Origin: Planctomycetia bacterium
GTDB taxonomy: Bacteria > Planctomycetota > Planctomycetia > Pirellulales > UBA1268
Assembly: GCA_046090365.1 (NCBI GenBank)
Contig: JBJSZP010000411.1
Location: 1 to 25,617 of the forward strand
Direction: 5' to 3'
DNA: 25,617 nt
The notes beneath the pieces are model-generated. The model saw only the letters and a program-made list of their open reading frames with translations, was not told the DNA's origin and did no database searches. Every line of letters begins with the position of its first letter. Within the stretch, counting starts at the first letter, position 1. The translations under genes were made by a program, and so were the position numbers. Below are positions 16,617 to 25,617 of the stretch, one piece after another.

Positions 16617-17510
16617 ATGGGATTCTCCGACCGCGGCTACTACCGCTCCGAGCCGTCGAACGCCTTCCTCCAGGAATGGACCGGCGTGCTCACGCTCATC
16701 GTGGCGAACGTGGCCATCTGGGTGGCGAACCTGCTCGGGGCGAACGAGTTTCCCGTGAACCGGTTCCTCGCCCTCCAGGGCGACCTCCCGCAGCACCTCC
16801 TCAAGGTGTGGGAACTGGTCACCTACGGCTTCGTGCACGACTCGTTCAATCCGTGGCACCTCGTCGTCAACATGCTCACGCTCTGGTTCTTCGGCCGCGT
16901 GGTCGAGGAGGTGATGGGGCGGGCCGAGTTCTTCCGCTTCTATTTCACGGCGATCGTGCTCGCGGGCATCGCCTGGCTCGTGAGTGTGCAGATGGGCCAC
17001 CCGCTCCAGGCGGCCCGGTTCTCGCTCGTGGGCGCCAGCGGCGCCGTGATGGCCGTGCTCGCCGTCTTCATCTGGTACTTCCCGCGGCAGACGCTCCTCA
17101 TCTGGGGCGTGCTCCCCGTGCCGGCCTGGGCGCTCGGCCTCCTGTATTTCGTGTCGGACGTGCAGGGCGCGGCCTCGGGCGGCGGCAACGTGGCCCACGT
17201 GGCCCACATCGCCGGCGCGATCTTCGGACTTCTCTACGCCTGGCGTGGCTGGAACCTCGGCGGCCTCGCCGACGTCGGCGCCGCCTTCCGCCGCCGCCGG
17301 ATGCGCGTGGTGCGGCCCGACGACGACCGCGCCGCCCCGCGGCCCGCCGCCCGCCCCCGCGAACCCGAGCGGCTCGACCCCGACCTCCAGGAGCAGGTCG
17401 ACCGGATCCTCGAGAAGATCAGCCGCTCGGGCGAATCGAGCCTCACGACCACCGAACGCGACACGCTCACGCAGGCCAGCCGCCGCCTCAAGGAACGCTC
17501 GCGCTCGTAA
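16617..17510 (+). CDS. Rhomboid family intramembrane serine protease with a C-terminal helical extension
   Basis: WELVTYGFVH, HLVVNMLTLWFFG, GASG catalytic Ser, AHVAHIAG catalytic His, QEQVDRILEKIS tail; start MGFSDRGYY chosen (16608 is an alternative). Confidence 0.95.
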   Translation: MGFSDRGYYRSEPSNAFLQEWTGVLTLIVANVAIWVANLLGANEFPVNRFLALQGDLPQHLLKVWELVTYGFVHDSFNPWHLVVNMLTLWFFGRVVEEVMGRAEFFRFYFTAIVLAGIAWLVSVQMGHPLQAARFSLVGASGAVMAVLAVFIWYFPRQTLLIWGVLPVPAWALGLLYFVSDVQGAASGGGNVAHVAHIAGAIFGLLYAWRGWNLGGLADVGAAFRRRRMRVVRPDDDRAAPRPAARPREPERLDPDLQEQVDRILEKISRSGESSLTTTERDTLTQASRRLKERSRS

Positions 17511-17527
17511 CCAATTTCGCGCGCGCC

Positions 17528-17833
17528 GGCTTCGGGCTCCCCGTATCCCGTCGCCGGACGTTCGCCTGCGCCCTCCAGGCTCCGGCTCACTCGACTCCGG
17601 CTGCGCTCCGCCTGGCGGCTTTCGCGCCGTCGCCGCCGTCCCGGCGTCGGCTCCGGCTTACGGTCGCCGGGCATAGCCCGGCTTCCACACGCGAACGTCA
17701 GGGCCGGAGGCCCGGGTGATCACCAGCCGACGGAGGTCGGCAAAGCGAACAGCGGCACGATGCCGGGTGTTCGCGTGAAGATGGCTGCGCTTGCCTACAT
17801 ACGCCTGCTCCAGGACACGGGGAGCCCGAAGCC
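17528..17833. mobile_element. Unit U1: 306-bp MITE/REPIN-like element with 17-bp perfect TIR and hairpin cargo
   Basis: GGCTTCGGGCTCCCCGT (17528-17544)/ACGGGGAGCCCGAAGCC (17817-17833); 17783-17833 is identical to the reverse complement of 25517-25567. Confidence 0.75.
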
Positions 17834-17853
17834 TCCTCAACTGGGAAAGAGGA

Positions 17854-17995
17854 GGCTCGGGGCTGCCCATGCCCTTGAGCGGGCTGTGGGAGCGAGCGCA
17901 GGCATGGATGCCGAAAGCGAAGCGCACACGCAGAGAGCCGAAGCCTGGAGGGCTGAGGCGAACGTCAAGCGAGAGGGCGTGGGCAGTCACGAGCC
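17854..17995 (-). mobile_element. Unit U2 copy A: 142-bp TIR-bounded palindromic element
   Basis: Ends GGCTCGGGGCTGCCC/GGGCAGTCACGAGCC; the reverse complement matches 22662-22802 with 14 mismatches and 1 gap by hand alignment. Confidence 0.8.
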
Positions 17996-18014: not shown

Positions 18015-18037
18015 TGACAGACTGAAGACTGTCCCAC
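18015..18037 (-). repeat. REP-like unit, GACAGGC family
   Basis: GTGG-GACAGTC-TTCA-GTCTGTC-A on the minus strand. Confidence 0.75.
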
Positions 18038-18047
18038 CTGCGGCGCC

Positions 18048-18677
18048 TTAGCGTGTGAGGCCGGTTGGGATCGCGGCAGTGCGCTGCTCGGGGCGGGCCT
18101 GCAGGCGCAGGGCGTCGATCGTGGCCACGAGTTCGCGCATCTTGACGTCGTCGACGCGGCCCGAGAGCACGGCATGCACTTCGCCGCGCGGGTTGACGAG
18201 CACCACGTTGGGCGCGCCGGGCACGATGCCGTAGGCGTGCTCGAGCCGGCCTTCGAAGTCGAGCCACACCGGGACGAAGGGGGAGTCTTTGCGGAGCTGT
18301 GCGCGGGCCACCGGCTGGAGCGCCTTGGGGATTTCGGGCAGGCTCGCGACGGCGACCACGTGCACGTCGGGCAGCCGCACGCCGGCCGGCCAGCCGGCGA
18401 GGCCGATCACGGGCTGGCGACACCATTCCGTGGCCGGGGCGGTGGCGGCGGTGGGGTGGAAGTGGAGGTGGAGCCGGCGGCCGAGTTCCTGCGCTGCCTC
18501 GCCCCCCTTGCGCTCCGCATACACGAGCACGACCACGTCGCCGCGCAGCATGCCGGTCTCGTGGCGGTGCTTGAACTGATCTTCCATCGCGATGTTCACG
18601 ACGCGCTCGGGAGGCTGTCCGGCAGTGGGCGAGGCGAAGAGCGAGACGAGGACGACCGCGGTGACGAGGGTGCGCAT
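18048..18677 (-). CDS. Exported hypothetical protein, thioredoxin/AhpC-like fold without CxxC
   Basis: Signal peptide from ATG 18677 (MRTLVTAVVLVSLFAS); EDQF..., VVVLVYA, VWLDFEGRLEHAYG, NVVLVNPRGEV pattern typical of Trx-like folds. Confidence 0.75.
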   Translation of the reverse strand: MRTLVTAVVLVSLFASPTAGQPPERVVNIAMEDQFKHRHETGMLRGDVVVLVYAERKGGEAAQELGRRLHLHFHPTAATAPATEWCRQPVIGLAGWPAGVRLPDVHVVAVASLPEIPKALQPVARAQLRKDSPFVPVWLDFEGRLEHAYGIVPGAPNVVLVNPRGEVHAVLSGRVDDVKMRELVATIDALRLQARPEQRTAAIPTGLTR

Positions 18678-21746: not shown

Positions 21747-22661
21747 ATGCCAGTGCTTCGTGGATCGTGGATGGGATTGGCAGCCGTGCTCGCGGTGTTT
21801 GCCGGCACGCGGTTGCCAGCTGCTGAGCCTGCCGTGGCGGCGAACCTCGTGGCGGCGTGGAACGACGGTGGCTCGTCGAGCCGTGAGGCCCGGCGGCAGG
21901 CGATCGACAGCCTGCCGCTCGAGCGGATGACCGATCCCGCGCGGCGCACCGTCGAGAAGGCGCTGCGGGAGACCACGCTCTATCGCCGTCTGCCCGTGCA
22001 GACGTTCACGTGCGACGAGGCGCTGCTCGAGTTTGCGCTCGCCCATCCGGAGGCGATCGTCGACGTGTGGCGGGTGCTCGGCATCAGCCGCCTGTCGCTC
22101 GATCCGGCCGGGCCGCAGCAGTGGCGGCTCTCCGACGGCTACGGCACCGTCGGGGCCCTGCGGCTCATGCACCGGGAACGCCGCGGGCCCGGCGGCCTGC
22201 TCGTGTTCCATGGCCGCGGCGGCTATTCGGGAACGCTCGCACCGAAGCCGCTCACCGGCGGCTGCCTGATCCTCGTGCAGCATCACCCGGAGCCACCGGC
22301 GGCCGGCGGAGGCCACCGGCAGACCGTGCAGATCGACGCCTTCCTCGACGTCGATGGGATGGGCCTCGAACTCGTCACCCGCACGCTCCAGCCGCTGATC
22401 GTGCGTTCCGCCGCCATGAATCTCGGCGAGGTGTGCCTCTTCATGGAGTCGCTCTCCGCCGCCGCGGAGCGAAACCCGGCCGGCGTGGTGCGGCTCACCG
22501 AGCGGCTCGCCCGCACCGACCCGGCCCAACGGGCGACGTTCGCGAACATCGCCCGCGCCGCCGGCGCGAACGCAGGCCGCGTTGGCGATCCCGAGGCGGT
22601 GCAAGCCGAACTGGCCGCCCGCTGGCTGCCTGCAGAGGACGTCGACACGCTGCGGCGGTGA
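21747..22661 (+). CDS. Exported hypothetical protein
   Basis: Long ORF with a signal-peptide-like start MPVLRGSWMGLAAVLAVFAG and natural residue composition; upstream extension to 21321 overlaps the MMPL gene and was discarded. Confidence 0.8.
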   Translation: MPVLRGSWMGLAAVLAVFAGTRLPAAEPAVAANLVAAWNDGGSSSREARRQAIDSLPLERMTDPARRTVEKALRETTLYRRLPVQTFTCDEALLEFALAHPEAIVDVWRVLGISRLSLDPAGPQQWRLSDGYGTVGALRLMHRERRGPGGLLVFHGRGGYSGTLAPKPLTGGCLILVQHHPEPPAAGGGHRQTVQIDAFLDVDGMGLELVTRTLQPLIVRSAAMNLGEVCLFMESLSAAAERNPAGVVRLTERLARTDPAQRATFANIARAAGANAGRVGDPEAVQAELAARWLPAEDVDTLRR

Positions 22662-22802
22662 GGCTCGGGGCTGCCCACGCCCTCTCGCTTGACGTTCGCC
22701 TCGGCCCTCCCGGCCTCGGCTCTCTGCATGTCCGCTTCGCTTCGCCATCCATGGCTTCGCTCGCTCCCATAGCCCGCTCGAGGGCATGGGCAGCCCCTCG
22801 CC
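22662..22802 (+). mobile_element. Unit U2 copy B (stand-alone) between convergent genes
   Basis: Begins at the base after the upstream TGA; GGCTCGGGGCTGCCCACGCCCT...AGGGCATGGGCAGCCCC; about 89% identical to the reverse complement of 17854-17995. Confidence 0.8.
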
Positions 22803-22812
22803 AAGCCGTTCG

Positions 22813-23643
22813 TTATTTGTCGGCGTCTTCTATCGGCGCGTCGGCAGGCTTCTCTTCTGCCGGCTTCTCTTCCGCGGGCTTTGCATCCGCTGCGGGCGCG
22901 TCGGCCGGGGCGTCGGCTGCGGGTGCGGGGGCCGTGAGGGCGTCGAGCGGGCTCGCCTCGCCGTCTGGTGCCGCGTCGGCCGGTGCCTCTTCGGTGGCGG
23001 TGGTGGCGGATGGCGGGGCGAGCGCCGCGGCCACGGCCTTCGCGGCCGCCTTCGCCGCTTCGTCGATCTTTCCCTTCGGTGCCCGGGCCTCCACCGTGTA
23101 CATCCGCCCGCCGATCACGACGGCGTAGCTCCAGCGTTCGATCGGCTCGCTGATGCCATCGACCTTCGCCGACCCGGGGATGCCCCAGAAGGCGCCCAGG
23201 TGCGGCCCCACTTTCACCGCGGAGGACTTCTTCAGCGGCTTCGCCTTGCCGAGCGCGGCGGCCACGCCCTCCGCGATGCCGGCGGCGAAAGCCTGGTGAT
23301 TCTCGGCCGTCACCTCCGTGAACTCCGGTGGTGCCGCCTCGGCCGTGACGAGGATCTTCGGGTAGGTCTTCTTCGGGCCGGGCTGATACTTGACGAGGCA
23401 GTCCTTCGTGCGCGGCAGCCGCGTCCAGCCCGTCGGCGAGGCGACGGCGATCCGGCCGTCGTCGACCGCCAGCGCCGTATCGAGGTCGACGGCGGGCAGC
23501 TTGCCGCCCGCCGTGCCGCCGCCCGACTTCTTCTTCGTGGCCTTCCCGCCGCAGCCGACGGCAACCGTGAACGACAGGCACACGAGGCACACGAACAGCA
23601 GCCGCCCGAGCCGAGCAGTGTCCACCGCGGCGGTTTCGGCCAT
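22813..23643 (-). CDS. Putative lipoprotein with an acidic Ala/Pro-rich tail
   Basis: Hydrophobic stretch ending in lipobox-like VAVG-C; globular core; PAEEK repeats; 11 nt downstream of the previous stop with an AGGAA SD-like sequence. Confidence 0.75.
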   Translation of the reverse strand: MAETAAVDTARLGRLLFVCLVCLSFTVAVGCGGKATKKKSGGGTAGGKLPAVDLDTALAVDDGRIAVASPTGWTRLPRTKDCLVKYQPGPKKTYPKILVTAEAAPPEFTEVTAENHQAFAAGIAEGVAAALGKAKPLKKSSAVKVGPHLGAFWGIPGSAKVDGISEPIERWSYAVVIGGRMYTVEARAPKGKIDEAAKAAAKAVAAALAPPSATTATEEAPADAAPDGEASPLDALTAPAPAADAPADAPAADAKPAEEKPAEEKPADAPIEDADK

Positions 23644-23654
23644 GTCGGCGTTCC

Positions 23655-24002
23655 TTACTCCGAGATCGCTTCCTTCACGAGCTGCACGAAGTGCTGCGAC
23701 CGCGACGACGCCGTCAGGTCGGCGGCCTTCTTGTCGGCGGCCTTCTTGTCGGCGTATTCGAAGAGCACGAGCCGCTTCATCGACGGGTTGAACACGCCCC
23801 AGTAGGCCTTCATCCGGACCTCCTTGGCGACCTTCTTGCGGGAGGCCTTCTTGGCGGCGGGCTTCTTCGGCTCCTTGGCGGCCTTCTCCTTCTTCTCCTT
23901 GGCCGGCTTCTCCTTGGCGGCCTTCTTCGTCGTCTTGGCGCGGGCCTCCGCCGCGTCCGCCTGGGCCCTGAGTTCCTTGCGATTCACCACTTTTCGCGCC
24001 AT
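23655..24002 (-). CDS. Small Lys/Ala-rich hypothetical protein (histone H1-like low-complexity segment)
   Basis: 115 aa, 26 Lys; KKAAKEKPAKEKKEKAAKEPKKPAAKK segment followed by a folded-looking YWGVFNPSMKRLVLFEY...HFVQLVKE tail. Confidence 0.85.
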   Translation of the reverse strand: MARKVVNRKELRAQADAAEARAKTTKKAAKEKPAKEKKEKAAKEPKKPAAKKASRKKVAKEVRMKAYWGVFNPSMKRLVLFEYADKKAADKKAADLTASSRSQHFVQLVKEAISE

Positions 24003-24076
24003 GTCGCCCCGTGATCCTTCCGAAATGAAGAGGTATGGGAGGCGGAGTCGGACTGCTGCCGTCCCGCCGCGGCGGC

Positions 24077-24082
24077 AGTATA
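24077..24082 (-). promoter_or_regulatory. Putative -10 (TATACT) for the small basic protein/lipoprotein operon
   Basis: TATACT on the minus strand about 75 nt upstream of ATG 24002, divergent from the nadA promoter. Confidence 0.4.
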
Positions 24083-24112
24083 GCGGTCCCGCCCCCCCGC
24101 CGCACGGCGATC

Positions 24113-25280: not shown

Positions 25281-25327
25281 GTAAGACAGGCGTCCTGCCT
25301 GTCAGTGGGATGGGCTTCAGCCTGTCA
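25281..25327 (+). repeat. Two tandem REP-like units, GACAGGC family
   Basis: GTAA-GACAGGC-GTCCT-GCCTGTC-A and GTGG-GATGGGC-TTCA-GCCTGTC-A. Confidence 0.75.
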
Positions 25328-25348: not shown

Positions 25349-25491
25349 GGCTCGGGGTTGCCCCGTACCACCTCGCCGGACGCTCACTGCGCCCCTCCAT
25401 GGGCTTCGTTCGCTCGGAGTCACAGGCGCTGCGCCATCCATGGCTCCGCTGGTGACTCACGCCGGCTTAGTGGTAGGGGCAACCCCGAGCC
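25349..25491 (+). mobile_element. Unit U2 copy C (diverged, 143 bp)
   Basis: 16-bp perfect TIR GGCTCGGGGTTGCCCC/GGGGCAACCCCGAGCC plus inner TACCAC/GTGGTA; shares TCGCCGGACG...CCCTCCA and GCCATCCATGGC boxes with the other copies. Confidence 0.75.
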
Positions 25492-25516
25492 TCCTCTTTC
25501 CTGATTCAGTTGAGGA

Positions 25517-25617
25517 GGCTTCGGGCTCCCCGTGTCCTGGAGCAGGCGTATGTAGGCAAGCGCAGCCCGGGCACCGATTCGCCGAAGGCGAATTGGTCGT
25601 GCGCAGCGCAGCCGGAG
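25517..25617 (+). mobile_element. Unit U1 second copy, truncated by the window end
   Basis: 25517-25567 is identical to the reverse complement of 17783-17833; 25605-25617 matches the reverse complement of 17595-17607; different 37-bp cargo in between. Confidence 0.75.

Follow-up and report, generated by a model that had tools for sequence, protein, structure and literature searches.

The ~141-nt unit that recurs in a contig of a planctomycete MAG is most likely selfish mobile DNA of the REP/REPIN type rather than a gene. We think it probable that the unit is the self-folding, non-coding module of giant REPIN-like, non-autonomous elements that are spread as folded single-stranded DNA (ssDNA) by a RAYT, and we hold with greater confidence that it is a selfish, structured, non-coding repeat. 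The composite to which it belongs resembles a REPIN whose spacer has grown far larger and become structured. The window, by which we mean the whole 25,617-nt stretch analyzed, is one entire contig of the MAG (2.79 Mb in 620 contigs, 70% G+C, 80% complete).

An initial annotation of the window had described three copies of the unit, and all three were borne out (copies A, B and C, of 142, 141 and 143 nt respectively; Table 1). The total, however, rises to five, as the window also holds a fourth unit and a truncated fifth (25515-25617), and for copies B and C the better-folding strand, hereafter S, is the complement of the orientation originally given. BLAST aligns copies A and B over 137 nt at 90.5% identity (E = 6e-48), and copy C is alignable with them from end to end, with conserved islands kept and a different stem sequence. 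Copies A and B do lie between convergent gene ends, as had been stated, A sharing its spacer with the fourth unit: a rhomboid gene (plus strand) ending at 17510 faces an ORF (minus strand) ending at 18048 around A, and an ORF (plus strand) ending at 22661 faces one (minus strand) ending at 22813 around B. The latter ORF (22813-24105, minus strand) contains 15-nt periodic repeats encoding lysine/alanine-rich tracts and has no Pfam match; its product is possibly a histone-like or nucleoid protein.

Table 1. Units, linkers and REP hairpins in the window (S, better-folding strand; CM, covariance model).
Feature	Position	Strand	Description
Unit copy A	17854-17995	+	Right half of an inverted doublet; S strand is plus; CM match 106.9 bits
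Unit copy B	22662-22802	-	Solo without REP or linker; S strand is minus; CM R1 match 106.1 bits
Unit copy C	25349-25491	-	Left half of a doublet cut off at the contig end; S strand is minus; CM match 141.5 bits
Fourth unit	17522-17833	-	Third stem type; arms 17522-17607 and 17783-17833; basis: repeat families D4 and I4, partial CM match 17549-17605 (minus), BLAST copies 92-97% identical on other contigs
Linker hairpin	17834-17853		20 nt; joins the two inverted units of the doublet
Linker (25492-25514) and truncated partner unit (25515-25617)	25492-25617	+	Runs off the contig end
REP hairpin, GTGG tag	18016-18037	-	20 nt 3' of the S strand of copy A; read from sequence
Two tandem REP hairpins, GTAA- and GTGG-tagged	25281-25326	+	Between the nadA stop and copy C, placed and oriented as REPs are genome-wide; read from sequence

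The fourth unit is split by a hairpin-rich insert of ~175 nt (17608-17782) that lies exactly inside its central hairpin loop, and split units with inserts of 169-267 nt at the central loop also occur on two further contigs of the source assembly (C72 and C531). Positions 25507-25567, in the linker and truncated unit at the contig end, are 100% complementary to 17783-17843 (repeat pair I2), and at the insert position of the fourth unit the truncated unit carries a different hairpin of 37 nt (25568-25604).

Consensus sequences of all the larger subfamilies share one architecture. On S, a closing stem of ~22 bp leads through a purine-rich internal loop to a 5-bp helix and then to a three-way junction with two hairpin arms, each capped by a short G+C stem with a 4-5-nt loop. 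The stem sequences fall into at least three types, and modules recombine between types with the fold retained. In the window, the predicted RNA fold of copy B reached -85.7 kcal/mol on the minus strand (z = -8.7) and -67.1 kcal/mol on the plus strand (z = -4.4); the corresponding values for S and its complement were -79.0 (z = -5.7) and -59.3 kcal/mol (z = -2.8) for copy A, and -95.4 (z = -8.3) and -88.5 kcal/mol (z = -7.3) for copy C, with DNA energy parameters ranking the strands of all three as RNA parameters do. This asymmetry extends across the source genome, where S was more stable than its complement in all 247 near full-length copies by a mean of 14 kcal/mol (in 240 of the 247 with DNA energy parameters), and to units from other genomes (91 of 93). 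S consists of 41% G and 19% A, and the 247 copies contain 955 G.U pairs on S against 234 on the complement. Such a strand asymmetry points to selection on a single strand, be it DNA or RNA, rather than on a duplex site. Of 28 solo units in the source genome, 9 had S on the locally G-rich strand, as had 2 of 10 on long contigs of relatives, which show a clear and steady skew; the pooled proportion (11 of 38, p of about 0.015, from a small sample and a partly post hoc test) is a hint that the orientation of the unit is linked to the replication strand.

Several lines of evidence indicate that this fold is conserved above sequence, as the initial annotation had proposed from three copies. Following its suggestion that more copies be examined with a covariance model, we built a model from 39 source-genome units and a hand-set structure and aligned 110 units to it, almost all of them from ~45 other genomes. 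In this alignment 40 of the 52 pairs had changed on both sides. Every measure lay above all 500 shuffles and all controls in which the 3' partners were slid: a standard pair was present in 87.8% of cells, as against 75.4% after shuffling and 33-42% after sliding, and the covariation score was 0.298, as against 0.110 and at most 0.041, respectively, in an alignment that is fitted to the model and among sequences whose kinship inflates the shuffle test. The closing stem was 90.9% paired over 22 positions, and inner helices distant from the ends (helices 3, 5, 7 and 8) covaried too. One lower arm helix was just 63% paired, because subfamilies differ in register. Register differences between subfamilies likewise explain why RNAalifold, run on a MAFFT alignment, missed the lower stem of one arm; its structure was replaced by the hand-set structure and the covariance model.

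Haplotypes within the source genome provided a check that is independent of the alignment. The swap of a G-C for a C-G pair that had been noted in the central hairpin of the window copies is real: genome-wide we counted 321 copies with C-G, 17 with G-C and ~5 half-changed, and the swap was found on several sequence backgrounds. The difference between GCGTG/CCCAC and GCATG/CCCAT, also read originally as compensatory, comes down to one base pair of a 4-bp helix, which is A-T in 54 copies, G-C in 31 and broken in none of the 85. Another arm pair behaves in the same way (49 A-T, 39 G-C and none broken among 88), and the two assort freely, all four combinations being present (31, 21, 10 and 5 copies). 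Four combinations with no broken pair indicate that these pairs have been reshuffled or repeatedly hit, yet never left unpaired. In the outer (TIR) and inner stems, where copies A and B differ from copy C, both versions pair, as had been claimed.

Of the two identities put forward for the unit, a structured ssDNA mobile unit fits better than an ncRNA; the unit does not, however, stand free but is a module of a larger ordered composite. In its complete form this composite runs from a REP through a weak-strand unit, a linker and an inverted strong-strand unit to an inverted REP, and it therefore reads alike from either DNA strand. Adjacent units were oriented '-+' in 96 of 106 pairs and never '+-', such that the two S strands run outward from the linker, each with its 5' end next to it. 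The linker is mostly 20-23 nt long (96 doublets), and its motif stands at the 5' end of S in 150 of 186 units. Its asymmetric loop occurs in both orientations whatever the types of the flanking units (for example, at 17834-17853 and 25492-25514), as expected if the linker is flipped by recombination between the inverted arms. The REP hairpin, of which the source genome has ~290 copies, pairs over 7 bp around a 4-nt loop and bears a GTAG (or GTGG) tag. It lies 17-28 nt 3' of S, always in one orientation, in 129 of 240 units, the other 111 having no REP within 70 nt; of the 34 doublets with enough flank, 7 had both REPs, 20 a single one and 7 none. The unit itself departs from the definition of a REP (a palindrome of 20-40 nt with a GTAG tag), being 141 nt long with a three-way junction and ends without GTAG.

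The minimum-energy fold of a whole doublet is one long inter-unit hairpin of about -200 kcal/mol and not two separate units. Partners within a doublet are less alike than random pairs: none of 40 shared a 5' arm type, as against 19% of random pairs, and none of 22 typed doublets joined like with like. This rule may in part be an assembly artefact, and we keep it as a lead only, since near-perfect palindromes of 300 bp would break short-read contigs. As a lead, avoidance of long near-perfect palindromes would explain why the stem types have diverged around a constant fold. A preference for unlike REP partners has been recorded from complete genomes (PMC3733652).

The unit is highly abundant in the source MAG and narrowly distributed beyond it. 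BLAST searches with four units from the window identified at least 437 non-overlapping loci in the MAG, amounting to 1.65% of its bases, and a profile search (nhmmer) returned 402 matches, of which 247 were near full length. A unit copy lies within 200 nt of 212 of the 1240 contig ends. All 15 other genomes of the genus contain the unit, as do 22 of 24 sampled genomes of its freshwater, Pirellulales-labelled family (the other two sampled genomes lack it), and it was absent from the 16 genomes examined from other families of the same order. An exact-pattern scan with one genome per species found at least 104 stretches with the unit, and among the matches listed all but one were lake MAGs labelled Pirellulales, Planctomycetia or similar. 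The remaining match is one full unit in a Bacteroidota MAG labelled Chitinophagaceae (L120), most likely a mis-binned planctomycete contig. Plasmid and phage collections yielded no match to the unit. The Rfam search that the initial annotation recommended returned only tRNA for the whole window at gathering thresholds and, at E values up to 5, no match overlapping any unit, the one weak match (25475-25535) falling on a linker. The literature searched for REP, REPIN or MITE repeats in planctomycetes yielded general REP/RAYT papers only and no description of this family.

With regard to genomic context, the units keep strictly to intergenic positions close to gene ends. Just one of 296 unit clusters overlapped a gene call, and the median distance from a unit to a gene end was ~60-75 nt. 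The 76 clusters with genes on both sides divide into 35 between convergent, 35 between co-directional and 6 between divergent genes, as against 15%, 68% and 17% of background spacers, a three-fold enrichment between convergent genes. Between co-directional genes, S of solo units was sense in 11 cases and antisense in 12, which argues against a strand-specific RNA role. Integron attC sites were considered and rejected on the grounds of this context, since the units form no cassette array but are scattered among ordinary genes on more than 200 contigs, many of them in inverted pairs.

Comparison of sites between relatives revealed considerable turnover. In other species the copies most like B reach 93-98% identity and sit at different loci, although genes of these species differ by 13-25%; flanking genes are 75-88% identical. 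At the same site, one relative (G010) has a copy just 75% like B and with other modules, and the orthologous site of another (G002) holds a truncated unit and a REP. The composite that follows nadA in the window is absent from three related metagenome contigs, in which the downstream neighbours of nadA differ, and between G010 and a second contig of the source genome (C187) the spacer has been wholly remodelled. At the sites compared (G002, G010/C187 and nadA) we found neither a clean pair of filled and empty sites nor a clear target duplication, and insertion boundaries are unreadable in the absence of a clean empty site. Unit copy number and site occupancy vary between close relatives, all the differences observed being between species. 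This pattern suggests continued copying or conversion from conserved sources rather than static inheritance.

Gene order breaks at unit sites in several relatives, and at the site of copy B it does so in several genomes of the genus (L062-L067). In three of the latter (G005, G006 and G012) the two flanks of the B site lie 7-8 kb apart and are inverted, and a metagenome contig (L196) has the unit reversed and beside a different gene; the units look like rearrangement hot spots. In a set of 14 bare solos that includes 22662-22802, a GA dinucleotide stands outside both inverted-repeat ends on S, at the 5' side in 11 of the 14. These GA flanks are direct, not inverted, and must either belong to the element or reflect a target duplication of 2 bp.

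A candidate enzyme for the composite is encoded in a relative. In one genome of the genus (G009), arrays of the very REP found beside the units stand on both sides of the gene for a 175-aa Y1_Tnp protein (33.6 bits), whose sequence includes HVHLV, an HxH motif such as an HUH enzyme would be expected to have. Another genome (G007) has a frameshifted copy of this type of RAYT with the same REPs. The source MAG, which is incomplete and breaks at repeats, gave no PF01797 match and no tblastn match to the RAYT, and with the G009 protein as query we recovered matches in just 9 of 41 family genomes; the RAYT locus may have been lost from MAGs that break at repeats. An autonomous parent IS with the same ends was sought and not found, no unit halves lying more than 270 nt apart in the source assembly.

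Across the genus, the unit-associated REP is missing from the flanks of most other Y1_Tnp genes. RAYT paralogues in G010 (L193 and L185) and G058 (L184) each have their own GTAG REP variant, and the unit that G010 has in the place of copy B (L061) is followed by REP variants matching those around one of the G010 RAYT genes (L193). A different, lower-G+C Y1_Tnp gene occupies the same site in G011 (L017, 230-920) and G014 (L018, 1440-2150) and is bounded by a 22-nt A/T-rich inverted repeat, not by REPs. A similar arrangement of a RAYT with TIRs has been described (PMC3733652).

We therefore favor a reading in which the unit moves as ssDNA, given its dispersed intergenic copies, the fixed association with GTAG REPs, the cognate RAYT of a relative and the lack of bias with respect to the orientation of transcription. 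Under this reading a RAYT (an HUH/Y1 transposase) would recognize the REP ends of the composite, which would be copied in trans as folded ssDNA; the fold would act in DNA rather than RNA, and copy B and other solos would represent halves of composites that have decayed or broken. It is possible, if unlikely, that the unit acts instead as RNA, either as a cis-acting structure at 3' ends (a terminator or exonuclease block, bidirectional when doubled) or as a free small RNA, the covariation then reflecting RNA folding. Proximity to gene ends and enrichment between convergent genes would suit such a role, as would the tolerance of G.U wobble on one strand, a classic RNA trait, the RNA z-scores of S in the window (-5.7 to -8.7) and the arrangement of the doublet, which gives each transcript direction one strong fold; moreover, mRNA stabilization has been credited to REPs elsewhere (PMC3733652). 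However, between co-directional genes the strong strand of solos is antisense about as often as sense, Rfam offers no match even at E values up to 5, no U-tract follows the stem, and hundreds of copies, mosaic recombination and turnover between species suit selfish DNA better. An RNA role could coexist with mobility.

The covariation and the strand asymmetry also bear on two readings that place recognition in duplex DNA. An ordinary MITE, with 22-bp TIRs bound as dsDNA by a DDE transposase and stem covariation arising as both ends track one protein, would accord with long TIRs in three types that match between the arms (186 of ~200 typed units have like arms) and with the identical GA dinucleotide outside both ends of bare solos. 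We consider it improbable, in that helices far from the ends covary as well, duplex recognition would not predict the strand asymmetry, no kb-scale insert with a transposase is present in the source assembly (split copies hold ~170-270 nt), and the flanking dinucleotide is constant rather than site-specific and may belong to the element. Units kept by the host, and not selfish, as dsDNA sites for nucleoid proteins, gyrase or cruciforms are to our minds very improbable: nested palindromes could extrude cruciforms, positions at gene ends are strictly gene-free and rearrangement breakpoints coincide with unit sites, but copy number and occupancy vary among close relatives, wobble is confined largely to one strand, and two of the 24 sampled family genomes do without the unit. 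The preferred reading faces a difficulty of its own, which is that recognition of small REP hairpins by a RAYT leaves a conserved three-way junction of 141 nt without a reason. We accord a small but real chance to the view that the three-way junction of S is itself the functional ligand, as ssDNA or RNA, of a dedicated protein. It would then be either a bidirectional 3'-end element that the host has recruited or an HUH-enzyme substrate of a new kind, well beyond a REP in size. On this view, selection for paired units that fold each by itself, and not across the pair, would account for their mutually unlike stem types.

The units break the assembly of the source genome into hundreds of contigs and occupy more than 1.6% of a small genome, and such repeats account both for the fragmented MAGs of this family and for the breaks in gene order at unit sites. 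If the mobilizing enzyme reads the fold, this would broaden what RAYT-type enzymes are thought to recognize; should the unit instead work at the RNA level, a lake lineage that is common in the environment would carry a 3'-end element in very high abundance. The usual form of a REPIN or other bacterial repeat is a simple hairpin, whereas here an elaborate fold of 141 nt has been kept by many independent compensatory changes.

Correia/NEMIS elements of Neisseria, ERIC/IRU elements of enterobacteria and RPEs of Rickettsia are, like the unit, non-coding sequences of 100-170 nt with long TIRs that lie near gene ends. Unlike the unit, they are simple long hairpins with no tie to GTAG REPs, and the collections searched showed no sequence similarity; in addition, Correia elements have a TA duplication and RPEs insert in-frame into genes. 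The ends of IS200/IS605 elements and their miniature derivatives resemble the unit in that a Y1 HUH enzyme recognizes folded ssDNA strand-specifically (PMC6006769), and a link to the replication strand is possibly shared as well, the strong strand lying on the G-rich strand in just 11 of 38 solos here. They differ from it in having small subterminal hairpins, no long closing stem and a transposase inside the element (PMC6006769). REPINs form hairpins in ssDNA and show compensatory changes (PMC3116915), and the likeness to REPIN or REP-BIME and RAYT systems, known from P. fluorescens and E. coli (PMC3116915, PMC3733652), extends to high-copy, strictly extragenic palindromic repeats, small GTAG-tagged hairpins that in some doublets form inverted pairs around a spacer, hairpin formation in ssDNA, common compensatory changes, a possible preference for unlike partners (heterodimers) and, in a relative, a RAYT gene flanked by its own REPs. 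Unlike in REPINs, however, the spacer here consists of two ~141-nt units, polar in order, each with a conserved three-way junction and drawn from at least three stem types; complete elements measure ~380 nt as against ~70-110 nt, and the unit also occurs without any REP.
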